Origin: a virus | Lineage: Duplodnaviria; Caudoviricetes | Direction: 5' to 3' (one strand) | DNA: 53,015 nt | IMG/VR virus record: IMGVR_UViG_3300006641_004726 | Span: 1-53,015 of that record | In this document: in pieces, positions 21,662 through 52,807 of the stretch | Layout: each line of letters starts with the position of its first letter | How positions within the stretch are numbered: position 1 is the stretch's first letter | Notes under the pieces: model-generated | The model's input: only the letters and a program-made list of their open reading frames with translations | Databases searched by the model: none | What the model was told of the DNA's origin: nothing | Position numbers and translations under genes: made by a program

Positions 21662-24600
21662 CAGATGGAGTTGTCTTGGCCCACGCCCAGTGCGTCGAGC
21701 TCGTTCTGCATGTTGCCGATGGCCACACGGATGAGGTCGACTTCGATGCGCTCCAGTGTTGGCACCGGAACCACGAACACCTTGGCGTGAACGATGCCAT
21801 TCTCCAGCGCTGCCGGAGTCTGGATGCGCTCGTCGCAGATCACCTGGAAGGCTTGACCCGGCTTAGCACCGAACAGCGCTCCGCGGACATACAGCTCGTT
21901 GAGGATGCTGTTGCCGATGGAGATGATCTTGTTGTAAACGAGGCCGAAACCGTCGATCACGTTGAAGATCTGGCTGTCGAAGGCGCGGCGGAGCGAACCG
22001 TACACCACGTTCATGATCACGCGAGTGTTCACGAACTGGAACAGGCGCTGCTCGGCGTCGTCCTGGTTGATGCGAGTACGACCACCCCAGATGAACACGG
22101 TAGCACCGTATCCAGGCAGTGTGCGGCAGACGTTGCAACCACGTGGGTTGAGAATGTCTTGCTGGGTGCTGTTGATCGGAATCTGAACAGCGGACACACC
22201 GTTGAGGGGGAACTTGACACCAGCAGGTGGATACTGGAAGCCCTCGCTGCGGTAGCGGCGGATGGCCACACCGGTGACGTAGGGGCTCGGAGGAATCCAA
22301 GCGCCGGAGGCGTTCTTGAGGTACGAACCGTAGTAGGCGATGAAGCCACGGGGGTTGTAGTACTGCTGGCTGTCCTCGAGCAGCTTCTGGGCATCGTCGA
22401 TGCCAGTCGCGAGCAGAACGGCAGCAGGCACGCCTTCGTTGAAGGTACCACGCAGAGCGTAGTCCACCAGCTCCTCGGAAGTAACTGCGTTGAAGCGCCA
22501 CAGGTTGGACGGAGCCTCCTTGTAGGCAGTGTAGCGCAGAGTCAGAGAAGCACCCCACAGCACGACCTTTGTGCCAGTGCCGTCTGTGTAGGTCGGGGTG
22601 ATGTAAGCCTCGGTAGCACGCTCCTGGGCGACCAGGGGCACGCAGAAGAAGCTCACAGTGTCCTGGGAAGCCAGGACGAGGTCTCCGAGGAATCCAGCGT
22701 TGTCCGGGTTCGGATAGCCAGCGTCGAACTCACCGTAGGCGGAGTAGTACTTCGCGTCGGGCTGGCTCTCCACACGGTAGAAACCGAGTGTGTGGGTGTC
22801 GCCTTGGCCGGCAGGACCGGACAGGGGATCCAGGTTCGCTGGATAGAAGGTCGGCATCACGTTGTACGTGTTGAAGCCGTACTTCCGACCGCGGATCAGG
22901 TTCACCAGACCCTCGTTGTTGTAGAGGCTGGTGTTCTCGGGAGCGATCAGCAGGGTGCTGTACGAGAGCGTGGTCTGACCAGCTGTGAGACCGCCATTCG
23001 GATAAGGAATGAAGATCCGGCTGTTGAGGTTGGTCAGTGTGGTCGCCAGCATGAACTGGTTACCGTTGATCACGTTCACGTAGTACTTCACAGAAGCCTG
23101 CGAAGTGGAGGCGTTCACCAGTGTGCCACCGCCGATCTTGGTCAGAGGGGCAGTGAAGTAGACGATGCCGCCGTTGTTCAGACCGTGATTGAGACAGTTG
23201 AACACAGCCGGGCTCGAAGACACGGAGGGATCGAGCTTGGTGATGTTTGTCTCGGCGAAGGTCCGAGTGAACTGTGCCAGCTGGAAGTTCTCTGTGCTGT
23301 CCTGGAGCGATCCGGGCAGGTGCAGAGTGTTCAGATCCAGCACTTGGTTGGTGCCGTTCAGGATAAGGTCAGAGGTCTGACCGTCGATCTCGACGTAAAT
23401 GTCCCAGGCGGGTGTCTCGTAGGACAGGATGCCGGTTCCCTTCGACTGCAGCGAGGCGTAGCCAGCAGCAGGAACGATGGGCGTACCACCGCTGAAGGTC
23501 AGGGTCAGAGGCATGTCAGCCGCCGAGTAGCCGGAACCAGCGTTGGTGATCTCCACATCCACCACACCGAAGCCGAGCTCAGCATGACCTGTAGCAGCGA
23601 CAATGGTGTTGCCCGAATCCAGAGGGGAGGGGACGAACTGCAGGAGAGGGGTGGCCAGATAGCCAGCACCACGATCCACGATGCTCACGCTCGACACAGG
23701 GAAGCCCTTGGTCGCGGTGGCAGCAGCAGCAACAGCGGGGTTGCCGTCGGAGAATGTGACGGTCACGGCATCGCTTGTAGCGTAGCCGGAGCCTTGTGTG
23801 GTCAGGGCCACGGAGGCCACAGCGCGACCGATCACGTAGGACAGGGCAGCGCCAGAACCGTAGGTGTCGCCAGGGGCGTTCACCAGGTTCACCAGGGTGG
23901 CTTCGTCGTAGCCAGTACCGCTGTTTGTCAGGTTGACAGAAGCGAGAGGGAAGCCGTAGAGCACGACGCCCGCAGCACCGTCACCAGTGGTGTCACCGGC
24001 AGCAGGTGTGATCTGCAGCACGTTGGCATCGCTGGAGGTGTAGCCAGAACCTGGAGTCACCACGTTGATGGCGGCCAGGGCACGACCCAGAACACCGGAA
24101 GCAGCAGCAGCGCCGCCAGTGCTGTCACCCACAGCGTTGGTGAAACCAATGCCGAAGGAAGTGTAGCCCGAACCGTTGGCAGTCACGCTGACCGAAGCCA
24201 CAGGGAAGCCCAGGGTGATGGTCAGGACCGGAGGTGTGAACCAAGTGCCAGGGGCCGAGTCGGTCACGGTTCCGTAGGAACCAGCCAGAGCGGCAGTCAG
24301 GTTGGCTTGAGTCCAACCAGAGCCGGCAGCACCGATGGAGAACCCAGCGGTAAAGTCCACTGCGGTCGAGTAGTCGATGACGATGTCGGTCTCAGAGCCA
24401 GCACCAGCGATGGTGATGGTTCCAACCAGACCAGGGCCAACAGCGACTTCGCCAGCGGCAGTCACGTTCACAGCCTTGCCTTCGGCGCCGAGAACGGCAG
24501 TCGCAGCAGCGAGGGTGCCGTCACCGCTCACATTCACGACAGGAGGCAGAGTGTAACCAGCGCCACCGTTGGTCACGTTCACAGCGGCCAGTCCGCCAGT

Positions 24601-26820
24601 CACTGCCAGAGTGGCAGAGAAGGTAGCGCCCACACCGGTTGTACCGGAGGGGAGGGCCACAGTCGGAACGGCCTGATAAAGGGACCCACCGCCGAAAGTG
24701 CCGATGCCCACAGCCGCACCACCAGTGGTGGCCAGAGTTGCGGTCGCACTTGCCAGAGTTCCGGAGCCAGAGAAGCTGACGGAAGGAGCGGCGATGTAGT
24801 TCTGACCAGGGTTGCCCAGGGTCAGGGTCTTGATGGTGCCAGCGGGAGCCAGAGTTGCGGTTGCAGTTGCAGCCACGCCACCAGCGCCGGCAGGAGCCGA
24901 GATGGCCACAGACGGAGCGCTCTCGTAGCCGGAACCGCCATCAGTCAGGGTCAGCTTGGCGATGTTGCCACCCACAGTTGCGAGGGAAGCTGTCACCACG
25001 CCGCCGGAACCGGGGTCGCCAGCGAGAGGCACCACGTTCACTGTCGGAACGTTGGTGTAGCCAGAACCGGCGGTGTCGACCACTGCTTCGTCGATGTTGC
25101 CGGTGTCACCCAAAATAGCGATACCGGTGGCTGTCACACCCCCTGCAGCAGCAGGAGCGGGGAAAGTCACGATCGGCTCGTCACCAGCGTTGTAGCCGGT
25201 ACCAGGGTTGGTGATCACCACGCCGGTCACAGCGTCGCCGATGTTGCCGTTGCCGCTGGAGGCATCCACGGGGATGCAGCCTGGGGGCAGGGTGTGAACA
25301 CCGGGGTACTCAGGAGTACCGTCGCCGTCCAGTCCACCTTGGCTGATGATCCAGTTGTAGGCGGTGATCGCCTGAGGATAGGTCTCAGCGAAGTAGATGT
25401 AGCCGGTGAAGGTCTTGTTCTCAGGTGTCAGGTAGGTGGGAACCACATACACTGTCAGGCCCTCGAACTCGGCCAGTGCGCCGCGGCAGTCACTCAGGGT
25501 CACGGGGGTGCCGGCTTCCTTGGTGGAAGGCCAGCTCTCACCCACCAGGTCCAGAAGACCGGGACGGTCGTAGGAAGGTGTGGTGCTTGTGGCGAAGGTG
25601 ATTTGGCCGTTGTCACGCAGGGACAGGAAACGGTCGAAAGGAACGTTCAGGTTCTGCGAGCCGTTGACGGCGTAGGAGGGGTCAGACTCAGAAGCGCTCA
25701 GCGGGGTGTAGCGCAGCTGCAGGTAGTCGGTGTCATCAGCCACCCACTCGTACACGCTGTTGCCAACCAGGAACTCCTGGCCATTCACCAGAGGAGCAGC
25801 AGCCTGATGCTGCAGGAAGTCCTCATACTCGAGGATGCTGGTCACCAGGTACGGACCTGCGTCAGCAATGGCCATCCACTTGTGGCTGTTGAGTTCGGCT
25901 TGGAAAGCCATCTCTTGGCCGATGAGGCGACGACCTTCGGGGCCGAACTTGGCGAAGGCGCAAGGAGCGGTCAGGTAACCCTGGGACTCCTCATCCACGA
26001 ATGCGGTGCGGAGGCACTGGATGTAGTCAGCAACCAGCTCGTTGGTGTTGGTGCTGTCAGGGATGACAGGGCCCACGGTGTAGGTGTTCAGAGTGAACAC
26101 GTAGTAAGCACCGTCGCTGGGAGGCTCGCTCTCAGGCACCACGCTCACAGGAGCGTTGAACTCACGACCGGCCAGGTACTCGAAAGCACACTCGCTGTTG
26201 GCAGTCTGACACACGCCGATGTCACGGACGATGGTGCCAGCCGACACGTTGGGGTCGGTGGTGATGGCGGCGGCAACAGCATCACGGATCGCGATGGCGA
26301 TCTTCTTGTTGTTGTCGTAGTTGCCCTCGACGTAGTCCACGGGAATCACCACGGGCACACCTTTCCAGGTGCCGCTGTTGGTGAAGGTGCCGAGACGGGC
26401 GCCGTTGATGAGCAGTTGGGCGTGAACAGTGTCACCAGCCTGCAGAGGGGTGGAGACACCCAGACCGTTGGTCTTGAAGCCGGAGGGGTTCAGCTGCACT
26501 TCCACCACGTTGGAGGGAGTGCCCACGCGGATCACGCGCAGGTCGCCCACGTAGCACTGAGCGAAGAATGCGTCCACACACTGGTAGGACAGCAGCTCGA
26601 TCTTGGTGGAGGGGATCACACCGCCGATCAGTCGCACATACTCGCGAGTATTGGTGACTTGGATGGGGGTGTTGAAGGGGAACAGTGTGGTGGGCACATC
26701 GGGCTCCACCTCAACCAGCATGTAGTTGGTCGAGAAGGGAGCAATAGCGGGGGTAGCCGACTGTCCGGCTACCTCGTTGATGTAGACGCCAGGAGCGCCT
26801 CCAAAGGAGATAGTTGCCAT
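21661..26820 (-). CDS. Giant contractile tail sheath protein with internal repeat insertion (1719 aa)
   Basis: APGVYINE N-terminus; C-terminal WIPPSPYVTG, PPAG, IWGGRT, FVNTRV and PVPTLERI sheath motifs. Confidence 0.92.
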   Translation of the reverse strand: MATISFGGAPGVYINEVAGQSATPAIAPFSTNYMLVEVEPDVPTTLFPFNTPIQVTNTREYVRLIGGVIPSTKIELLSYQCVDAFFAQCYVGDLRVIRVGTPSNVVEVQLNPSGFKTNGLGVSTPLQAGDTVHAQLLINGARLGTFTNSGTWKGVPVVIPVDYVEGNYDNNKKIAIAIRDAVAAAITTDPNVSAGTIVRDIGVCQTANSECAFEYLAGREFNAPVSVVPESEPPSDGAYYVFTLNTYTVGPVIPDSTNTNELVADYIQCLRTAFVDEESQGYLTAPCAFAKFGPEGRRLIGQEMAFQAELNSHKWMAIADAGPYLVTSILEYEDFLQHQAAAPLVNGQEFLVGNSVYEWVADDTDYLQLRYTPLSASESDPSYAVNGSQNLNVPFDRFLSLRDNGQITFATSTTPSYDRPGLLDLVGESWPSTKEAGTPVTLSDCRGALAEFEGLTVYVVPTYLTPENKTFTGYIYFAETYPQAITAYNWIISQGGLDGDGTPEYPGVHTLPPGCIPVDASSGNGNIGDAVTGVVITNPGTGYNAGDEPIVTFPAPAAAGGVTATGIAILGDTGNIDEAVVDTAGSGYTNVPTVNVVPLAGDPGSGGVVTASLATVGGNIAKLTLTDGGSGYESAPSVAISAPAGAGGVAATATATLAPAGTIKTLTLGNPGQNYIAAPSVSFSGSGTLASATATLATTGGAAVGIGTFGGGSLYQAVPTVALPSGTTGVGATFSATLAVTGGLAAVNVTNGGAGYTLPPVVNVSGDGTLAAATAVLGAEGKAVNVTAAGEVAVGPGLVGTITIAGAGSETDIVIDYSTAVDFTAGFSIGAAGSGWTQANLTAALAGSYGTVTDSAPGTWFTPPVLTITLGFPVASVSVTANGSGYTSFGIGFTNAVGDSTGGAAAASGVLGRALAAINVVTPGSGYTSSDANVLQITPAAGDTTGDGAAGVVLYGFPLASVNLTNSGTGYDEATLVNLVNAPGDTYGSGAALSYVIGRAVASVALTTQGSGYATSDAVTVTFSDGNPAVAAAATATKGFPVSSVSIVDRGAGYLATPLLQFVPSPLDSGNTIVAATGHAELGFGVVDVEITNAGSGYSAADMPLTLTFSGGTPIVPAAGYASLQSKGTGILSYETPAWDIYVEIDGQTSDLILNGTNQVLDLNTLHLPGSLQDSTENFQLAQFTRTFAETNITKLDPSVSSSPAVFNCLNHGLNNGGIVYFTAPLTKIGGGTLVNASTSQASVKYYVNVINGNQFMLATTLTNLNSRIFIPYPNGGLTAGQTTLSYSTLLIAPENTSLYNNEGLVNLIRGRKYGFNTYNVMPTFYPANLDPLSGPAGQGDTHTLGFYRVESQPDAKYYSAYGEFDAGYPNPDNAGFLGDLVLASQDTVSFFCVPLVAQERATEAYITPTYTDGTGTKVVLWGASLTLRYTAYKEAPSNLWRFNAVTSEELVDYALRGTFNEGVPAAVLLATGIDDAQKLLEDSQQYYNPRGFIAYYGSYLKNASGAWIPPSPYVTGVAIRRYRSEGFQYPPAGVKFPLNGVSAVQIPINSTQQDILNPRGCNVCRTLPGYGATVFIWGGRTRINQDDAEQRLFQFVNTRVIMNVVYGSLRRAFDSQIFNVIDGFGLVYNKIISIGNSILNELYVRGALFGAKPGQAFQVICDERIQTPAALENGIVHAKVFVVPVPTLERIEVDLIRVAIGNMQNELDALGVGQDNSI
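23446..25236 (-). repeat. Twelve ~40-45-aa beta repeats flanking a ~93-aa central unit, inside the sheath gene
   Basis: Consensus V-x-V-T-N-x-G-S-G-Y...V-x-F...G-x-x-A-x-A-x-x-x-L-G. Six copies precede and six follow 24208-24486. Confidence 0.85.
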
Positions 26821-28980: not shown

Positions 28981-29231
28981 GCTGGTGAGTTTTGTTCGGG
29001 TGTGTGATGAACTTTTACCCCAACACATGCAAGAAATGCCTCCAAGTCCTCGTAGGAGGAGCCTGGAGGCAGCTTCATGATGTTCATGCTGGCGTAGGAG
29101 AACGATGTTTTCGCTCCCCTGATGTCCCCACTGAGTAGGCGATCTAAAGCATCGATCGCCCATTCCTCAGCATAGAGAACCTCAAGACAAGGCAAACCTT
29201 GGTCGTTGCATGGAGTGGATTGATTGCACAT
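28977..29231 (-). CDS. Hypothetical protein (~84 aa)
   Basis: Fills the gap between kinase and chaperone with an ATGA overlap; start uncertain. Confidence 0.45.
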   Translation of the reverse strand: MCNQSTPCNDQGLPCLEVLYAEEWAIDALDRLLSGDIRGAKTSFSYASMNIMKLPPGSSYEDLEAFLACVGVKVHHTPEQNSPA

Positions 29232-29742
29232 TTGCCCAGACCTCTTCGGCTCCCCATTCAGGGTCTACCATGAATGAGGGGAACATGGTCACGTAGCGGT
29301 AGAAGTTCTCCATCTCGTCGATGTAGAAGTGGTGTTCATTCTGCCGCGACATGAACGCATCGCGCCTTGCCCAGTGGGCTGGCAGGTGATGCCTCTTGTT
29401 CAGTTCCTCCCAGTGAAGTGGTGCGCACCAATGCCAGGGCTTGGTCACACCGACGTGAATAACCTCGTGCCTCTTGCTCAGCTCGAATTCGAGATCCATG
29501 ATCTCCACGAGATGATCGTGGTTTCGCTTCCGGTAGCGCTCGAGAATGAACGCACAGAGATAGCTGCGGTCCCAGATCTGGTCGCCACCCTCCTCCAGAT
29601 TCCGACGGTAGATGTCAAAGATGTCGGGATCGAAGACGTCGGGGGCGTTGTGATGCTTGACCTTGAAGCCAGTGAGATCGGCGAGGTTGGCGGCTAGTGT
29701 TGATTTCCCGACTCGGTCGGGGCCACCTAACAGGATGAGCAT
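29182..29742 (-). CDS. P-loop nucleotide monophosphate kinase-like protein (paralog 1)
   Basis: GGPDRVGKST Walker A and WDRSY thymidylate-kinase-like DR motif. Confidence 0.8.
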   Translation of the reverse strand: MLILLGGPDRVGKSTLAANLADLTGFKVKHHNAPDVFDPDIFDIYRRNLEEGGDQIWDRSYLCAFILERYRKRNHDHLVEIMDLEFELSKRHEVIHVGVTKPWHWCAPLHWEELNKRHHLPAHWARRDAFMSRQNEHHFYIDEMENFYRYVTMFPSFMVDPEWGAEEVWANVQSIHSMQRPRFALS

Positions 29743-29745
29743 GCG

Positions 29746-30117
29746 TCAGACTCGGCTGTAGCAGACGGAAGCGACGCCTTGGGAAGGCGAAGCGATTTGG
29801 GAAAAGGCACCGTAGGAAAGGTCCAGGGAACGCCCGTAGACGTGTGGACCGTCATCGTTGATGCGCACGATGACTGATTTGCCGTTGGCTTGGTTGGTCA
29901 CTCGAACGCGAGTCCCGAAGGGGAGACTCTTGTGGGCGGCCGTCAGGCCATAAGCATTGAACCTCTCGCCGTTGGCGGTTGTTCGCCCGTGGTACCCGTC
30001 ACCCACACCGTAGTGCGAAGCTTGAGTACATGACGCCGCCTGAGCTGCATTGGGCGCTAAACCCGCAATGCCCAGGACGGTGGCTGTGAGGCTCGTGAAG
30101 ATGGAACGTAGCATCAA
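29746..30117 (-). CDS. rlpA: RlpA-family lytic transglycosylase (DPBB) with signal peptide
   Basis: ASHYG...[10 protein letters not shown]...[17 protein letters not shown]...VRINDDGP...LDLS. Confidence 0.92.
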
Positions 30118-30369: not shown

Positions 30370-33168
30370 TTAGAGTAAACCGCGCTGGACAAGCCCGTGG
30401 CGGGTCTTGAGCCGGTCGATGGCACCCAGCTCAGCCAGCTCGCGCATGCTGAACTCCTGGCCGTCAGGCTCATCCTTGCCCTGAGGGTTGGACGGACTGA
30501 CGGTGCACTCGTGAGGTGTCTTCCGAATGCGGTTGTCGATGGCCACAGACGAGAAGAATGCTCGACTGAGAGGCACATCGGGAAGTCCCACAGAGGACTG
30601 GAAGCGAGCCCAGGTGTAGAGGTGGGCGATCTGGTAGGCGACAGCCCACAGCTCAGCGTGCTTCTCTGGAGCCATCCACCAGATCTCGTCGTGGATCGAG
30701 ATGATGAAGCGTACCTGAAGCTTGTACTCACGCATCAGCCAGTGGGCTGCGGTGAGGATTGTGGCCAGGATTTCTGCGCCCGACGCCTGAATCGTCCAGT
30801 TGATGCGACCAGTCAGGAAGTCGTCTCCCACGGCCGCGGGACGCAGTGCGGTCGAGATCTTGGTGCCGAGGCACGGAAGCTGAGGCACCTTGGTCTTGAG
30901 AGCGAGACGTTCCATGTAGTTGAAGCAACCGGAGTCGCTACCGCCTTGGAATGGCTCACTCTTGTACTGACGGTAGCCCTTCTTCGCCTCCAGCATCTTC
31001 ATCGCCAGGTTGTTGAGCTCCCTGGCGTTTCGGTCTGGGAACTTGCGGCGGATTGTGTTGGCCACAGTCCGCATGCCGGCGCCGTAGAGAACTGCGAAGC
31101 CCACACCCTTGGCAGTGTCACGGTCCACGCCGGCCGCTTTTGCCAGTGCGGAGTGAGGATCAGTTCCCTGCTCTTTCGAGCCGGAGAGCACACTGAAACC
31201 CATGGGAGAGCCGCCCACGACCCCTGTGTCCCACGCGTCACAGTAGGCGGACGCGATCTGAAGCTCCTGACCGTCAAAGTCAGCACCCACAATCTTCCAG
31301 CCGTCAGGCGCAGACACGCGGGTCTTGAGCTCTGTGCCGATGCGCCAGTTCTTGGTCGAGCACATGGTCACCATGAGCGGTTCCACAGTGCGTCGCGTCA
31401 CAGTGCCGTGAGCCAGGATCTCTGGCAGGGTGATGTAGGCGTCCTCACCGTGTGGATTGTGAGCCTTGACGAAGATGCGATCCATCACACGCTTGCGCAC
31501 GGATGTCCAGTAGGAGGTCGCGTTGGCGATCTCGAGAGCTCGCTTGGCCTCAGGCAGGTCGCTGTCGAGACGACCGACCTTCATGTCATCGACGAAATCC
31601 TTGGACAGCAGCACACCCACATTGTCCTTCTGGTTCTTGGGGTGGGGGATCTTGGTGAGCTCACCTTCTTCGTTGGTGTAGCACCAGCCCTGTTTCTTGG
31701 TGGCTACGATCGGGCTGCCTTCCCACTTCAGCTTGAGCAGCAGGTGGGCGAGCTGGTTCTTCGGCGTGATGCGTCGGTCGGGATCCTTGATGAAGTCCCG
31801 ATACCAGTTGGGGATGTGGGCGTACTTGCCTTTCACAGTCTTGACATCCCAGTCCAGCTGGTGGAGCCACGGGTCACGGTCTGCCCACGCCTGGGCTTTC
31901 TCAGGATTCTGGTCGTAGATCTCACGCCACGCCGCGTAGTGGGTCTCAGCCAGCTCACGGCAGACGTCGCCCATCTCACGGATGTAGCTGTGGTAGGTGT
32001 CCTCACAACGCTGGATCCACTTGGTCCAGTCCTCAGGCAGAGGAATCACCGAGCCGTTGAGGTGGTACATGCCACACAGACCCACCATGCTCGGAGTCGA
32101 GTCGAGGTACTTTGGCCAGATGGCTTGGAACAGCTCAGCGGTGTAGAACGCGTCCTTGACGGCATAGTCGAGAGCCTCGAAGATGGCGTGGCGGATGACA
32201 GCGAGGTCAGGTGCGGTCACGAACAGGTCTCGCACCTCCTTGTCCTCGTAGCCCAGCTTCTTGGCTTCACCACCGAAGAACTTGCGCACCTCGTAGACGT
32301 GGAAGTTGTAGCACTCGACCAGGGAGTTGGTGGAACCAGCCTCGAGCCACTTGGGGGCGAAGCGGAGCTTCCGTTTCTCCTCCTCGGTCATCTCCTCAGG
32401 TTCCTTTCCCGCAAGAACGTACAGCCAACGCTGACCAGAAGCAAGACCAGAAACCCCGATGTGAGCGGAAAGAGTGTCGAAGTAGAAGTTCTCGGGCTCG
32501 GAACGGTCGAGGGAATAGGCTTCGCGAGAACGAACGCGGTCATAAGAGATGTTGTGGCCTGCTACGAACTTGTTCTCCCCGATGGGGATCATGTCGTACT
32601 GCGTCCACTCCGACTGCGGGATCGAAGGATCGATAAGTTCCGCCGCAAGCCAGATGTAAGCCGCTTCAGAGGAGAGCGCCGTTCCGATGATAGGGAATGC
32701 GCCTCCAACCACGAAGGTCTCAGTGTCAAAGGTGAACGCTTGCTCGAGAGGGTGCGGGACTGTTTCCGTAGTCCACTTGCCATCCTTTCCAAGCGTGTAG
32801 CGAGTCCATCCAGGGTTGAGGACAAGGTCGTCAATGCCTGGGATCGGCGGGAGCGTGGCTTGAGCGAAATCATCTGCTGCTTTCTTGTGGTGGCCGATCT
32901 GCTCTTCTGCGATCTTCTCGAAGTGTTCCTCGATCGTCACTCCCTTCAGATCGGGAAGGGGGAGTGGCCCGTCGTACATGCCTTCGGCGTGAGAGACAGG
33001 GACGGGGACCTTGAACTTCTCCAAAAGAGAAACCGCCCGGTCCAACTGTTTCTGAGTCGGTTCCGGGCGGGGAACTGTGCCGAATAGCTTCCGGTGAACC
33101 TCGTCAGAGACCACCGGATAGCCGAGTTCGTTCTTGCGCATGTGCGGCACGTTGAGTTTTGTCATCAA
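30370..33168 (-). CDS. Family A DNA polymerase, mitochondrial Pol-gamma-like
   Basis: Exo motifs FDTET, GHNISYDR and YAVKDA. Pol motifs VGADFDGQEL, RDTAKGVGFAVLYGAG and ISIHDEI. Gamma-specific blocks DPWLHQLDW, GTVTRRTVEP and AFFSSVAID. Confidence 0.92.
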   Translation of the reverse strand: MMTKLNVPHMRKNELGYPVVSDEVHRKLFGTVPRPEPTQKQLDRAVSLLEKFKVPVPVSHAEGMYDGPLPLPDLKGVTIEEHFEKIAEEQIGHHKKAADDFAQATLPPIPGIDDLVLNPGWTRYTLGKDGKWTTETVPHPLEQAFTFDTETFVVGGAFPIIGTALSSEAAYIWLAAELIDPSIPQSEWTQYDMIPIGENKFVAGHNISYDRVRSREAYSLDRSEPENFYFDTLSAHIGVSGLASGQRWLYVLAGKEPEEMTEEEKRKLRFAPKWLEAGSTNSLVECYNFHVYEVRKFFGGEAKKLGYEDKEVRDLFVTAPDLAVIRHAIFEALDYAVKDAFYTAELFQAIWPKYLDSTPSMVGLCGMYHLNGSVIPLPEDWTKWIQRCEDTYHSYIREMGDVCRELAETHYAAWREIYDQNPEKAQAWADRDPWLHQLDWDVKTVKGKYAHIPNWYRDFIKDPDRRITPKNQLAHLLLKLKWEGSPIVATKKQGWCYTNEEGELTKIPHPKNQKDNVGVLLSKDFVDDMKVGRLDSDLPEAKRALEIANATSYWTSVRKRVMDRIFVKAHNPHGEDAYITLPEILAHGTVTRRTVEPLMVTMCSTKNWRIGTELKTRVSAPDGWKIVGADFDGQELQIASAYCDAWDTGVVGGSPMGFSVLSGSKEQGTDPHSALAKAAGVDRDTAKGVGFAVLYGAGMRTVANTIRRKFPDRNARELNNLAMKMLEAKKGYRQYKSEPFQGGSDSGCFNYMERLALKTKVPQLPCLGTKISTALRPAAVGDDFLTGRINWTIQASGAEILATILTAAHWLMREYKLQVRFIISIHDEIWWMAPEKHAELWAVAYQIAHLYTWARFQSSVGLPDVPLSRAFFSSVAIDNRIRKTPHECTVSPSNPQGKDEPDGQEFSMRELAELGAIDRLKTRHGLVQRGLL

Positions 33169-38513: not shown

Positions 38514-40520
38514 TCACGCGAGCTCATCCAGACTGGCGACCTTGTTGCCCTTTGCACCTGGTCGACCCGCCTTGGCGGTGGCCAGTGTGATCTGCATCGG
38601 CTTCTTCCGCTTCGATTTGAACTCCACGGTGTAGCCATCCTCTCCGAAATGCACGAGCTCTGCTCCCTCAGGGAGAGCGCTCTTGCCCTTGCTCGTGGTC
38701 TTGCACAGATCCTCACCGCTGAGGGTCAGAGCCTTGAGCTGCCCTTCGAGCTTGAACACCATCAGGTACTTCCTGAGGGAAACCTCCGCCTCCCTCTTGG
38801 CCAGCACCACACCCGTGTAGGAGTCGGCGATGGGTCCCTTGAACGTGGCAGGCACCTTCTTGAGGAGACCGTCCTGCGTGAGGAACACCACCTTGTCCTT
38901 CTGGTCCAGCACCAGAGCACCGCGTGGTCCCTTGGCTTGGGTCACTGTGCCTTTGCGTTGGTCCACCACCATGAACCGCGGGCGAGCCGTCCTGGGTCCC
39001 TGGTCGCGCTTTGCCGCGGTGGATGAGGTTGCCTTCACAAACCCTGCCGGAGGCCCAACCAGGGGCGACCTCCTGCGCTCTCCGTGGCGCTTCGCAAGCT
39101 CCTCCATCTGAGCGAGTGCCCACGTCTTCCGTGCGTCCTTGCTCTTCACCAGGTTCTCCAGCTCTGCCACAGTGGAGATGAGTTCCTGCTCCTCAGCGAG
39201 GAGTTCCTCACGGTCCAGGCCGGTGAGTTGCCGCAGCTTCATCTCGAGGATGGCTCTGGCTTGGTCCGGTGTGAACTTCAGCGTGCGGGTCGTCACCAGT
39301 GTGGTGAGAGCATCCTTCGGTGTGGCCGAAGCGCGGATGATCTTGATGACGGCATCGATCTTGTCGATCGCCTTGAGGAAGCCACGAACGATCTCGAGGC
39401 GTGCCTCCTTCAGGTCAAGCTCGTGCTTGAACTTGACTTCCAGGCGACCCAGTCTCCACTCGAACCATCTCTGACAAATGTCAACTGGCGAGAGCTCGAC
39501 CGGTCGCGTACCGTCAATAACCAGCGTCTTTGCCGAATAGCGAGTGTCAAGATCGGTGGTTGCGAAGAGTTGCTGAGCCAGCTGTTCAGCGTCCACACCG
39601 GGCTTCGCAACAACACTGACACGGTCTCCGGAGAGATCAGACTCATCGATGACTTCTGCGATTCCGTCGATTCGCCCCTTCTCGAGGGCTTCCTTGATCT
39701 GTTCACCCAGTTTTTCAGGGTTGATCCGAGGCGGTAGGTTTGTAAACGTGACCACTCCTCGATCCTTCGCCCGACCCTCACGCTTCTGCGTAGAGACCTC
39801 GTAGCGTGCTCGACAGCGAATGCTGCCGCTACCAGTCTGAGTGTAAGTAAGTAGATTCTCATCCTGAACGATCTCGCATCCTGTGGGGAAGTCAGGGAGC
39901 AGGAGTTCCCGCGCTTTCTTGATGTTTCCAGTCGCAGCGAGCGTGGTTGCCTTCACGACGTCACGCAGGTTGTGCGGTGCGAGCGTTGTGGCGAAGCCCA
40001 CTGCGATGCCAGCGTCTCCGTTGAGGAGGATCGAAGGCACTGCAGTGTTGAAGCGCGCAGCCTCCTGACGAGAACCGTCGTAGTTCGGTCGTGTGTCCCA
40101 CGTGGCACGGTCCTGAAGCAGCAGTTCCACTGCTGAGGGACGGAGCTTCGCCTCCGTGTAGCGCTCAGCTGCAGGTCCATCGACGGAGGAACCGAAGTTG
40201 CCATGGCCGTTCACCCACGGAACGTTGTTGTTCCACTCGGTGGCCATGTTGACCAGAGTGCCGTAGCAACTGCCTTGTGGGTGGTAGTAGGCGAGTGTGA
40301 GGCCGGTGACGCGAGCGCACTTGACGAACTTCTTCTCAGGGGTGAGACCCTCCTCGATCATCGTCTGGAGGATTCTCCTCGCCGCAGGCTTCAGGCCGTC
40401 GTAGAGGTCAGGGATCGCTCGGCCGAGGAGCACGGCCATCGCGTAGTCGCCGTAGTCCTCCTTCATCTGGTTGGCCAGATTGACTGGCACCACGTTCTCT
40501 TTCACGCTTCGTTTCGGCAT
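38514..40520 (-). CDS. gyrA: Type IIA topoisomerase subunit A (GyrA/ParC-like) with short CTD
   Basis: RAIPDLYDGLKP..RRIL, GHGNFGS, AAERYTEAKL (catalytic Tyr), GIAVGFAT and PDFPTG. Confidence 0.93.
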   Translation of the reverse strand: MPKRSVKENVVPVNLANQMKEDYGDYAMAVLLGRAIPDLYDGLKPAARRILQTMIEEGLTPEKKFVKCARVTGLTLAYYHPQGSCYGTLVNMATEWNNNVPWVNGHGNFGSSVDGPAAERYTEAKLRPSAVELLLQDRATWDTRPNYDGSRQEAARFNTAVPSILLNGDAGIAVGFATTLAPHNLRDVVKATTLAATGNIKKARELLLPDFPTGCEIVQDENLLTYTQTGSGSIRCRARYEVSTQKREGRAKDRGVVTFTNLPPRINPEKLGEQIKEALEKGRIDGIAEVIDESDLSGDRVSVVAKPGVDAEQLAQQLFATTDLDTRYSAKTLVIDGTRPVELSPVDICQRWFEWRLGRLEVKFKHELDLKEARLEIVRGFLKAIDKIDAVIKIIRASATPKDALTTLVTTRTLKFTPDQARAILEMKLRQLTGLDREELLAEEQELISTVAELENLVKSKDARKTWALAQMEELAKRHGERRRSPLVGPPAGFVKATSSTAAKRDQGPRTARPRFMVVDQRKGTVTQAKGPRGALVLDQKDKVVFLTQDGLLKKVPATFKGPIADSYTGVVLAKREAEVSLRKYLMVFKLEGQLKALTLSGEDLCKTTSKGKSALPEGAELVHFGEDGYTVEFKSKRKKPMQITLATAKAGRPGAKGNKVASLDELA

Positions 40521-42222: not shown

Positions 42223-43098
42223 CTAGTTGACCGCCACCTTGATGGCGTCGTGAGGCTGGTAGTTGGAGATGCCGAGGTCATCCAGCTGCACGTCATCCCA
42301 GCTCGTGTACTCACGCTGGTTCAGGAGGAGACGACACTCTGGGCGGGACTCACGAGCGATCAGCTCCTCAGCGATGTCGTAGCAGTTCTTGTAGATGTGG
42401 GAGTTGGAGGATGGCATGTAGACGTAGCGTGGCTCGAAGCCAGTCATCTTGGCCATCACCGTCAGGATGATCGCGTAGCGTGCGATGTCCAGAGGGAAGC
42501 CCACGATCATGTCGTTGGACCGTGCCGGAACCATGAGGTCGAGCTCATCACCGCTTGGTGTGAACTGCATCGCCAGATGGCACGGCGGACACCCCACATT
42601 CATCGCAGTGGGATTGGTCGTGATGACGGTGCCGTGACGTGAGTTTGGAGTGTCAGCGAGGAGAGCACGGACACGCTCAAGCTGGTCAACGGCACCCACG
42701 GTCACAAGAGTCTCATTTGGAACCTCAGAGCCTGCCCGTGAGGCAGGCCACTTGCGCCATTGACGATTGTAGGCGGAAGCACCGAGCTCGCCGTCATCAT
42801 CAGCAAGGAAGTCCCAGAAGTGGCGAGCAGGGCCGAGGGCTTCGACGTTCTGTGAGAGACCGATGTCAAACAGGAACTCACGAACGAGATTCTTGAACGG
42901 CATCTTGCGAAGCCGAGTCAGAGGGAAGCCGCACTGGAGGTCGACACGGACAGACGCACCGAACGTGGACTTGGTCTCACCATTCCGACCGACGAAGCCC
43001 TCACCGTAGTCCATCAGTTTCGTGATGTAGGCGCGGTAGATGTCATCCCAGTTGTTGCTGGTGATGATGGTGTCGTTGAAGACGAAGTTGTGACTCAA
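42223..43098 (-). CDS. Thymidylate synthase homolog with Asn->Asp specificity change (predicted dCMP methylase/hydroxymethylase)
   Basis: Collinear with ThyA (GFPL, YNRQWRKW, DQL, PPCH, HIY), but reads RSNDMIVGFPLDIARY where ThyA has RSxDxxLGxPFNIASY. Confidence 0.85.
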   Translation of the reverse strand: MSHNFVFNDTIITSNNWDDIYRAYITKLMDYGEGFVGRNGETKSTFGASVRVDLQCGFPLTRLRKMPFKNLVREFLFDIGLSQNVEALGPARHFWDFLADDDGELGASAYNRQWRKWPASRAGSEVPNETLVTVGAVDQLERVRALLADTPNSRHGTVITTNPTAMNVGCPPCHLAMQFTPSGDELDLMVPARSNDMIVGFPLDIARYAIILTVMAKMTGFEPRYVYMPSSNSHIYKNCYDIAEELIARESRPECRLLLNQREYTSWDDVQLDDLGISNYQPHDAIKVAVN

Positions 43099-43679
43099 TT
43101 GATTTCCTCCAGATAGAACATGATCTCTTCTACGGCATCGGACGTGAACTCACCAGCATCAACCCAGATGGTGGGGAATGCAGTGATATTCTCAGTGAAG
43201 TCACGAATCCGCTGGTAGTATAGCTCGTGCTCTCTCATTCGTGCGATGTAGAGATCACGCTTGGCCCAGTCGGCTGCGTTGGGGTGGAGCAGGTCGATCT
43301 CAGCGAGGTGGTGCTTCGCCGACCAGTGCCAAGGGCGGTGGTAGACGACGTGGACCGTCTTGAAGGTGTCGGAGCAGCGCATGAGCTCGATCTCGAGATC
43401 CACGATGTGGCTCAGGTGACCGGCGTTTCCACGGCGGTGCGTCTCAAACACCATCGAGCACGGGTAGGAACGGTCAAAGAGGCAGAGCTCCTTCCCACCA
43501 CGAACCCACTCTTGAATCTTGTCGCGATTGATGTCGTAAGGGTCATCTTGGTCTAGAGGTGGTTCGGCGAGGTGGATCACGTCCACTCGCTTATCCCCAC
43601 GCATCTTGAGGATGGTGTCGCAGAGTGTGGACTTCCCCACACGGTCAGGACCGGAAATGATGACGAGCTTGCGTGTCAT
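43095..43679 (-). CDS. P-loop nucleotide monophosphate kinase-like protein (paralog 2)
   Basis: SGPDRVGKST and LFDRSY; ATG 43679 follows promoter copy C. Confidence 0.8.
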   Translation of the reverse strand: MTRKLVIISGPDRVGKSTLCDTILKMRGDKRVDVIHLAEPPLDQDDPYDINRDKIQEWVRGGKELCLFDRSYPCSMVFETHRRGNAGHLSHIVDLEIELMRCSDTFKTVHVVYHRPWHWSAKHHLAEIDLLHPNAADWAKRDLYIARMREHELYYQRIRDFTENITAFPTIWVDAGEFTSDAVEEIMFYLEEIN

Positions 43680-43701
43680 GTGGTGAGGGGCGTCTGTGGA
43701 T

Positions 43702-43757
43702 AGTATAACGGCCGCCCCCAAGTGGAAGCGGCCGATGTGCCAGTTTTTCAACCGGCA
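43702..43757 (-). promoter_or_regulatory. Early promoter element, copy C
   Basis: TGCCGGTTGAAAAACTGGCACA, then CGGCCGC...GCGGCCG, then TATACT. Confidence 0.7.
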
Positions 43758-45570: not shown

Positions 45571-46706
45571 CTGGCTTTCTCCTGGTACTCTTCGACGGTG
45601 AGATTGGCTTGCTTGAGGATAGCGTCGTCGGATGGATGGTAAGCCAGCTCGTTGAATGAACTCACCAGTCCCAGGTCCAACATCGCCTTCTGACGACCGA
45701 AAGGGTGGTCCGTGATGGAGGATGAGTTCCAGATCACGTCGCGATCGAGGTGGTCGTAGTGGCTGCCGGGCTTGATGTAGTTCTCGACGTAGCGGATGTA
45801 GTCGCAGCAGACATCTTCCGCGTTGTAGGGCAGTGAGCCGGTCTCACGGTAGATCTCAAACATCACCTCGTCGAGGAAGGCCTCCTTAGGCATCTTCGTC
45901 TTGGGCTTGGCAAGATAGGAGATACACTCGATGGCGTTGGTCCCGTAGTAGAACGGGCTCTCACGGTCGACGTACTCTGGGAACCAGTCGGCGATGTCTG
46001 CGATGAAGGCCGCGTACTGGAACTTGTACTTCCTCAGTCCTTGCCTGACATTCCAGTCGAAAAGCCAGTCGCCCATCTCACGGAACTTCTTCGGCTTGCC
46101 TGTCCGAACCCAGTTGCAGAACTCACGGGCGATACACGGTGCGAAGTCACAGAGGTAGTAGTCACCGCCTCGTTTGTAGCCCTCAGGTGGCTTGGGGAAC
46201 GCCGGAAACTGGTAGCCCACACTGGTGTAGAACGGCTTGTTGTGAGTCTTCACGACTTCCGTCATCTCCTCGATGTTGTCGCACTCGTGGAGGTGGAAGA
46301 GCAGAGTGTTGTGGTAGCCGGAAGGAATCTTGGCGTAGTTGATCGCGGAGCCAGTCACACGGTGGAGAAGCAGGAGGTAGAACCAGTCCTCCTCCTCAAG
46401 CTCCTTGTTCGTCCAGTTTGTGGCGACTTCACGGCGCTGGTCAGTGACGAAGCCGGCCTCCATCTTCTCGCAGTATGGGTGGGAGTCCGTCCAACCGTAG
46501 AAGATGTCGTTGACGATCTGACTGAAGCCAGCGTACTTCCGCTCGACCACGTCGTAGAGCTCAACATTCTCCATGAGGGAATCCCCCACACCCGACTGGG
46601 CGTGAGGGACCGTTCCGAGATTGCATAGCTCCTGCTGCTTCTCGGCCTTCTTGTAGTACTCGAGGAAGTCCTCGAAGTACCGTGTGCGTTCGATGGTGGC
46701 GCTCAT
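45522..46706 (-). CDS. Helical DNA-base hypermodification protein (aGPT-Pplase/HhH-glycosylase-like)
   Basis: FQYAAFIADI...GTNAIECI...EDVCCDYIRY resembles the F..Y...D...GPG...E..LCE..KY pattern of aGPT-Pplase1 proteins. Remote similarity judged by eye plus context. Confidence 0.55.
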   Translation of the reverse strand: MSATIERTRYFEDFLEYYKKAEKQQELCNLGTVPHAQSGVGDSLMENVELYDVVERKYAGFSQIVNDIFYGWTDSHPYCEKMEAGFVTDQRREVATNWTNKELEEEDWFYLLLLHRVTGSAINYAKIPSGYHNTLLFHLHECDNIEEMTEVVKTHNKPFYTSVGYQFPAFPKPPEGYKRGGDYYLCDFAPCIAREFCNWVRTGKPKKFREMGDWLFDWNVRQGLRKYKFQYAAFIADIADWFPEYVDRESPFYYGTNAIECISYLAKPKTKMPKEAFLDEVMFEIYRETGSLPYNAEDVCCDYIRYVENYIKPGSHYDHLDRDVIWNSSSITDHPFGRQKAMLDLGLVSSFNELAYHPSDDAILKQANLTVEEYQEKARCLTTTTSLTTSTTIS

Positions 46707-47158
46707 TCGCGGTCGTAGTGTGCAGACTTGCAGTTGCCAGAGAGTTCGGCTGCGGGGTCTTGAGGCGCGGCCTCAGTGCCGTTCGTGATATGATCCTTGC
46801 GCTTGGAGTTGTAGGCCAGCTTCTGTGCGGCTGCCTCAGCGAACTCCTCACCGCTCACGCCGGCGTAGGCAAGAACCGCGCGGTGGAAGAGCAGGATATC
46901 AAAAAGTTCGGCGATGAACTCCTTGCGAAGCTTCTCGTTGTCCAGGAACGAGGGTTCGCCGATCTTCCAAGTGCGGCGAGGCACGTACACTCGTGCTTCG
47001 ATTGTCTCCTCGATGAGGTGGCCCAGGTGCTCGATGACCTTGGCGTGAACCTCGTCACGTGTGAGGTCGTCTAGCGGACCAGGAATTCCTGCGGCCTTGG
47101 CGTACTTCTGCTGGGACTCCCAGCCATCGTTGACGAACTTGGCGTAGTCGAAATCCAT
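46703..47158 (-). CDS. All-alpha MazG-superfamily dNTP pyrophosphatase (dCTPase/dUTPase-like)
   Basis: LIEETIEA...RRTWK...AELFDILLF...KLAYNSKR. Confidence 0.8.
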   Translation of the reverse strand: MDFDYAKFVNDGWESQQKYAKAAGIPGPLDDLTRDEVHAKVIEHLGHLIEETIEARVYVPRRTWKIGEPSFLDNEKLRKEFIAELFDILLFHRAVLAYAGVSGEEFAEAAAQKLAYNSKRKDHITNGTEAAPQDPAAELSGNCKSAHYDRE

Positions 47159-50570: not shown

Positions 50571-50776
50571 TCGAATTCGAGGGTTTTGTTGGACTTGAGA
50601 GGCGGAGTATGGTACTTCGCCGGCTGACAGGTGGTGGTCATAGTGTGGACTGATGAGCGCACCTGCTCAGCCATTATACGATAACCAGTCCCCACGTACA
50701 CCTGGCCGCCGACCACGGCGACGGCCATAGCGCCCCAGAAGTAGTAGTACCACTGGGACTTCACTTGATGTCTCAT
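50567..50776 (-). CDS. Small membrane protein
   Basis: WYYYFWGAMAVAVVGGQVYVG transmembrane segment; ATGA-coupled. Confidence 0.7.
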   Translation of the reverse strand: MRHQVKSQWYYYFWGAMAVAVVGGQVYVGTGYRIMAEQVRSSVHTMTTTCQPAKYHTPPLKSNKTLEFE

Positions 50777-51803: not shown

Positions 51804-52682
51804 TTAGTTGGTTGCTTTGAGTGCTTTGAGGATTTTCTTGAAACGAGCTTCCTTGAGGAAGGAGCCGAACTCCGACTGCTCGAAGACCGAGCGGACAACG
51901 CCCTCAGTGGGGCGCGAGTTCGCAAACCATTTTACATCGAGATCGTCCACCATGGTCGTCAGACGCAGGTTGGCGAGGAAGTCACCGGCGCGATCCTTGA
52001 CCTTGGGGTGGAGACAGACACAGTCTGCAGTGGAGAGGCCGTCGTGAGGCCTCGACTCGGCGACGATGAGCGCGGCGGTCTTAGCGCCGATGCCCTTCAG
52101 TCCAGAGATGTTGTCGCTGGAGTCACCGGCTAGGGCTTTGAAGACCGGCACATCTTCTGGGTTGACGCCGTAGATCCGGCGCACACCGTCTGGATCAACT
52201 CGTTCAACCTTCTTTGCTGAGTTGAAGAGGATGACAGTGACTCGGTCGTCAACGCAAGCGAGCAGATCGCGATCGCAAGTGAGGATGTCAACGCCAGAAA
52301 AACCAACGGATCTCTTCGCCACGGATGCGATGACGTCGTCTGCTTCGACGCCTTGGATTGAGATTGGGTTGAACCCGAGGTAGAAGAGGATGTCCTCCTT
52401 GAGGAGGGTGATGTCCGACTTGAAGGAATCGTCGGAAGGTCCACGGTTTGCCTTGTAGTCGGCGTCCTCCTTCTTGCGGAAGTTGCCGCCTGCGTCGAAG
52501 ACGGGGAGGACGGCGTCGTAGTCTTCTTTCTCGAGGATCGAGAAGAGCGTATTGAGGACGCCGTAGGTTCCCGTGACAGGCTGGCCCCAGCTTGTGGTGA
52601 GCTCGCCTGCTCCCCGTTTGAGGGCGTTTCGGGACCTGTGGAAGAGGGCATTTCCGTCGATTAGGAGGAGTTTGCGTTGCAT
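51804..52682 (-). CDS. 5'-3' exonuclease/flap endonuclease (Pol I N-terminal domain-like)
   Basis: LLIDGN, YKANR, EADDVIA, DRDL and GDSSDNISGLKGIGAKTA. Confidence 0.92.
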   Translation of the reverse strand: MQRKLLLIDGNALFHRSRNALKRGAGELTTSWGQPVTGTYGVLNTLFSILEKEDYDAVLPVFDAGGNFRKKEDADYKANRGPSDDSFKSDITLLKEDILFYLGFNPISIQGVEADDVIASVAKRSVGFSGVDILTCDRDLLACVDDRVTVILFNSAKKVERVDPDGVRRIYGVNPEDVPVFKALAGDSSDNISGLKGIGAKTAALIVAESRPHDGLSTADCVCLHPKVKDRAGDFLANLRLTTMVDDLDVKWFANSRPTEGVVRSVFEQSEFGSFLKEARFKKILKALKATN

Positions 52683-52807
52683 CACTTGTTGAGGAAGAGC
52701 ACGACCACAGCGCCGATCAGGATGAACGGCATCAAGGCGTGCAGAGGGATGATGGGGAGAATAGGGAGGACAAAGGCCAGGAGGAAGAGTCCGACGATCC
52801 AGTGCAT
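52682..52807 (-). CDS. Small hydrophobic membrane protein (41 aa)
   Basis: MHWIVGLFLLAFVLPILPIIPLHALMPFILIGAVVVLFLNK; TGATG overlaps at both ends. Confidence 0.6.
   Translation of the reverse strand: MHWIVGLFLLAFVLPILPIIPLHALMPFILIGAVVVLFLNK

Follow-up and report, generated by a model that had tools for sequence, protein, structure and literature searches.

A Pol gamma-branch DNA polymerase in a fragment of an S-CBWM1-like myovirus: predicted role as replicase and probable exposure to modified dCTP

Homologs of DNA polymerase gamma (Pol gamma), the mitochondrial type of family A polymerase, are carried by a few cyanophages and bear on the source of the mitochondrial replicase; the Pol gamma branch corresponds to cluster 2 of Czernecki et al. 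2023, and no phage member has been assayed according to PMC10201439. The isolate nearest to the DNA described here is S-CBWM1 (MG450654; genus Aokuangvirus), a cyanomyovirus in the literature, whose gp77 is annotated as 'DNA polymerase gamma'. S-TIM5 (JQ245707) carries a more distant homolog, and structures have been solved for yeast Mip1 (PDB 9c51-9c53), which acts as a single subunit (PMC10201439), and for human POLG (PDB 8d33, 5c51, 3ikm). We analyzed the IMG/VR virus record IMGVR_UViG_3300006641_004726, a stretch of 53,015 bases referred to throughout, at its full length, as the window, and focused on a minus-strand open reading frame (ORF) at 30370..33168. Taking the evidence together, we consider it very likely that this gene encodes the replicative Pol gamma-branch polymerase of an S-CBWM1-like myovirus, probably one that meets modified deoxycytidine triphosphate (dCTP).

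Placement of the polymerase in the Pol gamma family

The gene and its parts are located as follows.

30370..33168, minus strand: Pol gamma-family DNA polymerase gene, 932 codons from TTG at 33168, stop TAA at 30370-30372
32107..32961, minus strand: 3'-5' exonuclease domain, residues 70-354 (PF18136)
32719-32727, minus strand: Exo I, D148/E150 (alignment)
32539-32541, minus strand: Exo II, D210 (alignment)
32152-32154, minus strand: D339 of Exo III, Y335/D339 (alignment)
31642..31848, minus strand: short spacer from W440 to H509, 68 residues (alignment segment lengths)
30649..31335, minus strand: polymerase palm and fingers, residues 612-840 (PF00476)
31081..31122, minus strand: motif B / O-helix RDTAKGVGFAVLYG, residues 683-696, with R683, K687, G688, F691 and Y695
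31054..31068, minus strand: T701, A703 and T705 in the helix after the O-helix (column scan)

The ORF is open over 932 codons plus the stop and encodes a family A polymerase in which an N-terminal region precedes the proofreading 3'-5' exonuclease, and a very short spacer links that domain to the polymerase domain. The TTG at 33168 is directly followed by an ATG at 33165, which is the likelier start because the identical database protein P0002 has 931 amino acids. The 12 motif strings from which the original prediction, made by a model from the letters, had drawn a block-for-block correspondence with POLG and Mip1 each occur once in the translation (DTLSAHIGVSGL at residue 231, DPWLHQLDW at 432, IPHPK at 507, NVG at 516, ALEI at 544, SYW at 552, GTVTRRTVEP at 588, KGVGFAVLYG at 687, GGSDSGCFN at 742, RINWTIQAS at 788, AFFSSVAID at 870 and SPSNP at 891), and Pfam, the PDB sequence search, the fold and the phylogeny all agree with that correspondence.

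In the profile searches, the product matched PF18136, the exonuclease domain of the mitochondrial polymerase, over residues 70-354 (E 5.6e-59, 200.1 bits against a cut-off of 26.7) and PF00476 over residues 612-840 (E 4.8e-11, 42.7 bits against a cut-off of 34.3), and reached the NCBIfam models of Pol I only at E 1e-3, far under their cut-offs. Its best solved relative by sequence was Mip1 (9c51, E 9.2e-113), human POLG scored E 7.2e-111 (5c51), and the best non-gamma match in the PDB was the Klenow fragment at E 1.5e-3. The AlphaFold2 model, computed with 57 aligned family members as input, was confident (predicted local distance difference test, pLDDT, 93.7; predicted template modelling score, pTM, 0.91). 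When it was compared with the PDB by Foldseek, ranks 1-35 were all Pol gamma chains, with template modelling (TM) scores of 0.75-0.87 (0.81 for Mip1; 0.85 for human POLG, at a root-mean-square deviation of 3.8 Å), and Klenow, T7 and other Pol I enzymes came next at 0.32-0.42. The catalytic residues D148, E150, D210, Y335, D339, D630, E635, R683, K687, Y695, H826, D827 and E828 are all present, including those of motif A (D630/E635) and motif C (H826/D827/E828), and are common to human POLG. Across an alignment of 148 family members (the query, 143 database relatives of at least 780 amino acids and 4 isolates, with 14 shorter representatives dropped), the catalytic residues of Exo I-III and motifs A-C are invariant or nearly so, those of the exonuclease varying by a single D-to-E replacement. 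These intact motifs predict templated DNA synthesis with proofreading. Judged from its sequence, the 932-residue product is an intact Pol gamma (mitochondrial)-type family A polymerase, as had been observed, and a further member of a polymerase type already known from a few cyanophages.

A PolA phylogeny (IQ-TREE, 56 rows, site-heterogeneous model, quick search) placed the protein inside the Pol gamma family and not with T7-like or bacterial Pol I enzymes. The split of the 51 Pol gamma-family rows from five outgroups (T7 gp5, E. coli Pol I, and the PolAs of the autographivirus Roseobacter phage CRP-171, Streptomyces phage BRock and Leptolyngbya phage Lbo-JY12) had 100% support in the Shimodaira-Hasegawa-like approximate likelihood ratio test (SH-aLRT), and the query and S-CBWM1 fell in one clade (98% SH-aLRT), far from the eukaryotes. 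Seven named eukaryotic enzymes (fish, tardigrade, yeast and four other fungi) belong to a 15-row clade with 100% support that is nested among shorter phage-like proteins, its nearest neighbours being Mic1, the 1,225-residue metagenome protein P0158 and P0150; the rooting of this tree is insecure because the outgroup branches are long.

The claim that Pol gamma homologs are known from only a few cyanobacterial phages holds for isolates and breaks down for metagenomes. Among 50,697 deposited phage records, 16 match the polymerase and 11 cover at least 80% of it; the isolates concerned are S-CBWM1 (54% identity over 99% of the protein), S-TIM5/54/61/66 (37-38%, with 37% for S-TIM5), Mic1 (33%) and A-HIS1/2 (32%), and the remaining 5 matches are partial and to ordinary phage PolAs. 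In metagenome-scale collections we found at least 279 clusters at E <= 1e-10 (7,999 candidates scored), the best 120 of which are all at least 63% identical to the window polymerase, and a library clustered at 50% identity yielded 1,505 proteins at E <= 1e-3, 931 at E <= 1e-10 and 504 at E <= 1e-30. IMG/VR holds 42 contigs with 65-87% identical relatives and the local gene order kept. One genome each of 185,579 prokaryote species contained no close relative of the polymerase, P0142 and P0153 had no relatives in IMG/VR, and the metagenome scan with P0014 returned nothing closer than 74%. The few isolates greatly understate the number and diversity of phage-like Pol gamma forms in metagenomes, and the window adds an intact, compact, Mip1-like example of the S-CBWM1 lineage.

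Polymerase matches that exceed the gene length were seen in three metagenomic relatives. L078 has a 231-residue ORF with an HNH-like motif (1759-2572) between query residues 499 and 504, inside the W440-H509 stretch, where eukaryotic enzymes run much longer; L125 has a 258-residue ORF (3683-4459) between two polymerase halves; and L121 has an over-long polymerase match at 4487-8119. An intron is already known in the Mic1 polymerase gene, at a location different from that of the L078 insert.

The compactness of the protein is apparent from the lengths of three alignment segments.

W440 to H509: 68 residues in the window, 125-136 in fungi, 255-259 in animals
Motif B Tyr (Y695) to G743: 47 residues in the window, 53-94 in fungi, 99-104 in animals
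C-terminal tail after K883: 49 residues in the window, 127-297 in fungi (three homologs), 43-50 in animals

The alignment with Mip1, which likewise has no long animal spacer insertion, is colinear throughout (query residues 10-499 align with 12-485, and 502-909 with 522-945), and the alignment with human POLG is interrupted at the long human spacer insertion. The animal excess between W440 and H509 holds the part that interacts with the accessory subunit, according to PMC10201439, and animal homologs are also longer by some 50 residues inserted behind motif B. The long accessory-binding insertion of the animal-type holoenzyme is absent from the window polymerase, and no accessory subunit gene turned up among the ORFs scanned in the window, which represents only 25% of the genome. 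Since the enzyme lacks the long animal insertion and is Mip1-like, it most likely works as a single subunit.

Role as replicase and predicted modification of cytosine

The argument for the role of the polymerase draws on the following neighbouring genes.

38514..40520, minus strand: homolog of GyrA / topoisomerase IV subunit A, syntenic with S-CBWM1 gp73
51804..52685, minus strand: separate 5'-3' exonuclease (FEN) gene, the expected partner of a polymerase without this domain
42223..43098, minus strand: thymidylate synthase (TS) homolog (PF00303, E 2e-52) that keeps the catalytic Cys (PPCH) and in which Asp204 (42487-42489) aligns with E. coli Asn177
29182..29742, minus strand: P-loop kinase matching phrog_761, 'thymidylate kinase' (E 4.3e-7), a short way downstream of the polymerase gene
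43095..43751, minus strand: second P-loop kinase (phrog_761, E 4.1e-10), its stop overlapping the start of the synthase gene
46703..47158, minus strand: nucleotide pyrophosphohydrolase-like protein (weak phrog_12184 match, E 5e-5), candidate for clearing an unmodified deoxynucleoside triphosphate (dNTP)

Every family-matching ORF of the window belongs to a phage structural, replication or nucleotide-metabolism family, and the long ones all lie on the minus strand. From position 1 to about 29 kb the matches are to baseplate, tail tube, major head protein, head protease, portal and sheath proteins, tail-completion and tail-chaperone matches also occur in the window, and from 29 to 53 kb the matches are to replication and nucleotide-metabolism proteins. 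The guanine plus cytosine (G+C) content is even along the window (0.54-0.63). The order of GyrA, polymerase and tail genes is the same as in S-CBWM1, with the GyrA-like gene upstream of the polymerase and the tail genes downstream. The window is a fragment of an S-CBWM1-like myovirus (CheckV completeness 25%), and the host of this virus is probably cyanobacterial. No host-like genes were seen in the window, despite the record label 'provirus', and no transfer RNA genes were found in it.

Polymerase searches restricted to families A and B covered five relatives that are complete or rated 100% complete (S-CBWM1, S-TIM5, A-HIS1, Mic1 and G011): in each of them the Pol gamma gene was the sole family A match, and a family B enzyme (PF00136) was found in none. 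The available text of the Mic1 paper (PMC7156551) describes FEN, helicase and primase as travelling with Pol gamma in Pol gamma phages. The window polymerase would act beside the separately encoded flap exonuclease and the GyrA-like topoisomerase subunit of the window, and the helicase and primase would be encoded beyond it.

The TS homolog lies about 9 kb upstream of the polymerase gene, and its Asp204 aligns with Asn177 of E. coli ThyA and Asp179 of T4 gp42. Asp occupies this position in 18/18 synthase copies read, namely that of the window and 17 from related phages; the S-TIM5 ThyA, 37% identical to the window synthase, is one with Asp at 177. According to the available text of PMC8670742, position 177 decides between deoxyuridine monophosphate (dUMP) and deoxycytidine monophosphate (dCMP) as substrate, mutagenesis of Asn177 to Asp converts a TS to dCMP methylation, and in viral metagenomes the Asp is a marker of contigs whose cytosine is modified; the accessible part of bioRxiv 10.1101/2024.12.05.627091 reports that TS homologs of Xp12-like phages produce 5-methyl-dCMP. 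The window homolog keeps E58, W80, Y94, C146, H147, R166, D169, H207 and Y209, has His or Gln in place of Arg127, and aligns Leu or Trp with Trp83 depending on the alignment. Its TS-like folate-side residues appear compatible with either 5-methyl- or 5-hydroxymethyl-dCMP as the product. The homolog is predicted to act on dCMP, and because Asp at position 177 predicts this substrate, the polymerase probably incorporates modified dCTP: the synthase would modify dCMP, and the polymerase would incorporate 5-methyl- or 5-hydroxymethyl-dCTP. We regard such incorporation as rather probable, and the presence of C5-modified cytosine in the phage DNA as equally so.

This route resembles that of T4 gp42 and Xp12, in which an Asp177-type TS enzyme acts on dCMP, a kinase carries the product to the triphosphate and the phage polymerase incorporates it. 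In the alignment with E. coli ThyA and T4 gp42, the window synthase is much closer to ThyA than to T4 gp42; and unlike T4, which is annotated with a family B polymerase, the window has a polymerase of the Pol gamma type. The claim that the phage probably uses a modified dNTP stands as a plausible prediction from the Asp-type synthase, the two P-loop kinases and the pyrophosphohydrolase-like protein. A homolog of the kinase at 29182-29742 also lies directly downstream of the polymerase gene in the clade of P0122 and in its 70% relative L116, whereas the complete genome of S-CBWM1 contains neither a homolog of this kinase nor a TS homolog. Pfam gave no match for the protein at 46703-47158, neither the PDB nor NCBIfam yielded informative matches to the kinases or the proteins encoded at 43779-44930 and 45522-46706, and the literature consulted, which did not extend to supplements, contained no report on the DNA base composition of S-TIM5 or S-CBWM1.

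Two further candidate markers of modification were discarded. A dCMP deaminase (PF00383) occurs in 5/5 relatives, including the synthase-less S-CBWM1, and is missing in the window fragment; the idea of a common hypermodification module was dropped, as the 394-residue and pyridoxal phosphate (PLP)-type genes of the window had no homolog in the 5/5 Gly-type relatives searched (so called for the residue after the motif B lysine, described below). These two genes belong to a set at 43779-47158 on the minus strand, upstream of the kinase and synthase pair, in which four genes have overlapping or abutting ends: they encode a phrog_13881 protein, a PLP-type 'threonine dehydratase' (phrog_7093, E 4e-43), the 394-residue protein and the protein with the weak nucleoside triphosphate pyrophosphohydrolase match. 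Pfam found nothing on the 394-residue protein, and its language-model neighbours include clusters with 11-36% of their members bearing PF18723, the helical domain of 5-hydroxymethyl-deoxyuridine DNA kinase. The set is reminiscent of thymidine hypermodification clusters, and it may serve further modification of a 5-hydroxymethyl pyrimidine.

Three alternatives bear on the identity, the role and the substrate of the polymerase, and part of what speaks for them also weighs against our overall reading. The best solved relatives are eukaryotic, as they would be if the gene were eukaryotic DNA misassembled into, or lately captured by, a viral contig. We find this scarcely conceivable, given the same-strand phage structural and replication genes on both sides, the even G+C, the 42 IMG/VR contigs with the same gene order and the strongly supported clade with S-CBWM1 far from eukaryotes; neither introns nor eukaryotic flanks nor a position inside the eukaryote clade were seen. 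The enzyme could instead serve repair or another auxiliary task, with replication carried out by the host or by a polymerase encoded in the missing three quarters of the genome. The window covers about one quarter of the genome, so that a second polymerase, an accessory subunit and a helicase may lie outside it, and the relatives' polymerase search extended to families A and B only. We nevertheless consider an auxiliary role very improbable, since Pol gamma is the sole family A polymerase, with no family B enzyme, in 5/5 complete relatives, the proofreading motifs are intact and the gene is located among replication genes (GyrA-like, FEN). As to the substrate, the synthase homolog might be an ordinary source of deoxythymidine monophosphate (dTMP), in which case the DNA would be unmodified and the polymerase would meet only canonical dNTPs. 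The homolog scores above the NCBI TIGR03284 thymidylate-synthase cut-off (131 against 108 bits), its best structures are bacterial ThyA (E 4e-34), and it retains most TS active-site residues, Trp80 and His147 among them, as well as a TS-like C-terminus. An ordinary dTMP source is nonetheless unlikely in our judgment, in view of the Asp that replaces Asn177 in every copy read and the effect and distribution of this replacement given in the available text of PMC8670742, the His or Gln at Arg127, the Leu that one alignment (the other giving Trp) places at Trp83, and the overlap of the synthase gene with a kinase gene.

Motif B: Phe691 and Gly688

Our reading of the enzyme as a replicase that probably meets modified dCTP raises the matter of motif B, for which the original prediction had noted a difference from Mip1 and a possible effect on nucleotide selectivity. 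The difference is correct: the alignment pairs phage RDTAKGVGFAVLYGAG with Mip1 ..RNEAKIFNYGRIYGAG, and motif B reads RDTAKGVGFAVLYG against RNEAKIFNYGRIYG in Mip1, where Tyr is the counterpart of human Tyr951 and the lysine is followed by Ile. As to selectivity, the suggestion does not hold for Phe691, which does not track the synthase gene, and gains from Gly688, which does.

Phe691 (codon 31096-31098) occupies the position of human Tyr951, T7 Tyr526 and E. coli Phe762, with the numbering checked for E. coli and T7. At this position, the 79 proteins shorter than 1000 amino acids have 37 Phe, 38 Tyr, 2 Leu, 1 Trp and 1 gap, and the 69 proteins of at least 1000 amino acids have 68 Tyr and 1 Phe; 42/42 IMG/VR relatives and S-CBWM1 have Phe. 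On these counts, Tyr at the 951 position is a mark of the eukaryotic subgroup and not of the whole family. The residue at this position is said, in work by Tabor and Richardson in 1995 and by Lim et al. in 2003, to govern the acceptance of dideoxynucleotides. Tyr makes human Pol gamma and T7 polymerase accept dideoxynucleotides, and E. coli Pol I rejects dideoxynucleoside triphosphates (ddNTPs). By this family A Phe/Tyr rule, rejection of ddNTPs is expected of an enzyme with Phe691, and the window polymerase should discriminate against them as E. coli Pol I does. The available text of the Mic1 paper (PMC7156551) records the Tyr951 equivalent as kept in Mic1 and S-TIM5 and absent from A-HIS1/2 and S-CBWM1. 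Phe691 was rejected as a mark of a modified dNTP, as the window has both Phe and the synthase, S-CBWM1 and A-HIS1 have Phe and no synthase, and Tyr is likewise seen in a phage with the gene (S-TIM5) and in one lacking it (Mic1). In these comparisons Phe691 is an ordinary phage variant, already in print, and appears unrelated to base modification.

Gly688 (codon GGT, 31105-31107) directly follows the motif B lysine. The residue at this place is Ile in Mip1, Ala in E. coli Pol I (Ala759) and Thr in T7 (Thr523), and it is Val or Ile in 59/69 proteins of at least 1000 amino acids. S-CBWM1 differs from the window in having Ile here and Lys/Tyr at 703/705, whereas S-TIM5 shares the Gly. We scored residue 688 against the presence of a TS homolog anywhere in the record for every related phage that could be reached, which gave 35 rows.

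Gly after the lysine: synthase found in 18, not found in 0
Other residue after the lysine: synthase found in 1, not found in 16

Gly and an Asp-type synthase occur together in the window and its 85-87% relatives L014 and L015, in L078 and L125, in L039 (the only Gly-type member of the 65-70% group), in S-TIM5 and two IMG/VR relatives that are 86% and 100% complete, and in 9/10 P0122-clade records, the remaining one being only a 15.8-kb fragment. Both are lacking in the complete genomes of S-CBWM1 (Ile), A-HIS1 (Gln) and Mic1 (Thr), in 12 partial contigs of the Lys-Ile/Val group (at most 118 kb), 4 of which reach a full 10 kb upstream, to the place of the synthase gene in L039 and the window, and in L116, which has Ile after the lysine. 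In the P0122 clade (L087 9860-14975; L125 2112-7671), polymerase, P-loop kinase and Asp-type synthase genes are consecutive; L116 (2089-6768) keeps the polymerase, the kinase and the next small gene, with nothing between the kinase and the small gene. The sole exception is L073/G018 (L085), 93% complete, which combines Asn after the lysine with a divergent Asp-type synthase (26% identical, His147 replaced by Met). Gly-type fragments too short to reach the location expected for the gene were omitted (L012/L105, L013, L016, L113, L119, L121, L122, L124 and L126), and so were six fragments of the S-TIM5 clade, in which, unlike in the window, some 100 kb separate the synthase and polymerase genes.

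A careful tree built without columns 683-712 placed S-CBWM1 inside the Lys-Ile clade, and the association therefore provides only three independent contrasts: one sets L039 against the Lys-Ile clade, the second compares the P0122 clade with L116, and the third the S-TIM5 clade with A-HIS1 or Mic1. In random pairings, all three were concordant in 134/200, two were concordant and one tied in 66/200, and none was discordant. A count of four contrasts, derived from a first quick tree, was dropped, the tree constrained to unite S-CBWM1 with the Lys-Ile group being better by 35.7 log-likelihood units. The approximately unbiased (AU) test rejects all Ile/Val rows as one clade, with a log-likelihood difference of 383 (p 1e-87) for a group that was named post hoc; the change from Gly (GGN) to Ile (ATY), which takes two base changes, occurred at least twice. 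In a scan of all 932 columns, 688 and 705 were the best separators (34/35 rows), followed by 703, 701, 803 and 579 (33/35 rows), and within the S-CBWM1-like group (29 rows) the residue sets did not overlap only at columns 46, 688, 703 and 705. Positions 688, 701, 703 and 705 fall within one 18-residue stretch of the fingers, and the probability that three of four random columns lie within 18 residues is 0.004.

We take position 688, by motif alignment and Taq numbering, to be that of KlenTaq Thr664, which directly follows Lys663 as Gly688 follows Lys687, although KlenTaq belongs to another branch of family A. The available text of PMC10487964 names Thr664 among the few residues that touch C5 substituents of incoming pyrimidine nucleotides. 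One interpretation is that the fingers of phage Pol gammas co-evolved with the nucleotide chemistry, Gly688, Ala703 and Thr705 being kept only with an Asp177-type synthase; with each loss of the synthase, 688 would have changed to Ile or Val, 703 to Gln, Lys or Gly, and 705 to Tyr or Ser. We hold this tentatively, at somewhat less than an even chance. Shared descent, physical linkage and a few losses could have produced the pattern with no functional tie, and to this explanation we give slightly better than an even chance. The two genes lie close together and are adjacent in one clade, S-CBWM1 falls within the Lys-Ile clade and so adds no separate event, and with three pairs, too few for significance, the sign test gives p 0.25 on the tree built without the trait columns. 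L073/G018 pairs an Asp-type synthase with Asn, the fungal enzyme of Blastocladiella (P0268) has Gly at 688, and Thr705 is widespread in phage forms outside the set scored for the synthase. Ordinary polymerases, moreover, take 5-methyl- and 5-hydroxymethyl-dCTP well and the SPO1 polymerase is not tuned to its own base, according to the available text of PMC9594043, and C5 groups point into the open major groove, according to that of PMC13697223. On the other side, no opposite contrast was seen, with Gly lacking a synthase in 0/35 rows; the two-base change was repeated; the AU test speaks against a single Ile/Val clade, with the post hoc reservation given above; the best separating columns cluster in the fingers; and the presumed KlenTaq equivalent of 688 contacts C5 substituents.

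With only three independent contrasts, the link between Gly688 and the synthase is a testable lead and not proof. A tie between motif B and an unusual nucleotide thus receives circumstantial support at Gly688, which, unlike Phe691, is a new lead. If co-evolution of the fingers is true, the window would offer a natural case of a family A replicase whose dNTP pocket and template-facing helix are adapted to a genome with fully C5-modified cytosine, and the pairing of Gly688 with the synthase could open work on family A polymerases that handle C5-modified nucleotides. As a separate observation, motif B of L073/G018 reads RTIAKNLNFQMLYL, with Leu replacing the usual final Gly.

Other features of the window

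Several other ORFs of the window, all on the minus strand, have unusual lengths, matches or locations. The ORF at 21661-26820 encodes 1,719 amino acids, far more than usual sheath proteins; its tail-sheath match is confined to the last 230 residues (phrog_17610, E 1.6e-42), and its middle part has several baseplate, fiber and virion-structural matches. Three endonuclease-like ORFs, at 12641-13213, 15609-16043 and 47193-48383, are found amid the structural and nucleotide-metabolism genes, with matches to the homing endonuclease family phrog_655 (E 5e-4 and 3.7e-11) and to HNH (E 2.6e-4). Adjoining the flap exonuclease gene, at 50773-51801, is the gene of a 342-residue protein with RTX calcium-binding repeats (PF00353, E 5.7e-13). 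Finally, a small RlpA-like double-psi beta-barrel protein with a signal-like N-terminus (PF03330, E 7e-24) is encoded at 29746-30117, between the polymerase and kinase genes; in S-CBWM1, a 'rare lipoprotein A-like protein' is annotated elsewhere in the genome (gp36).

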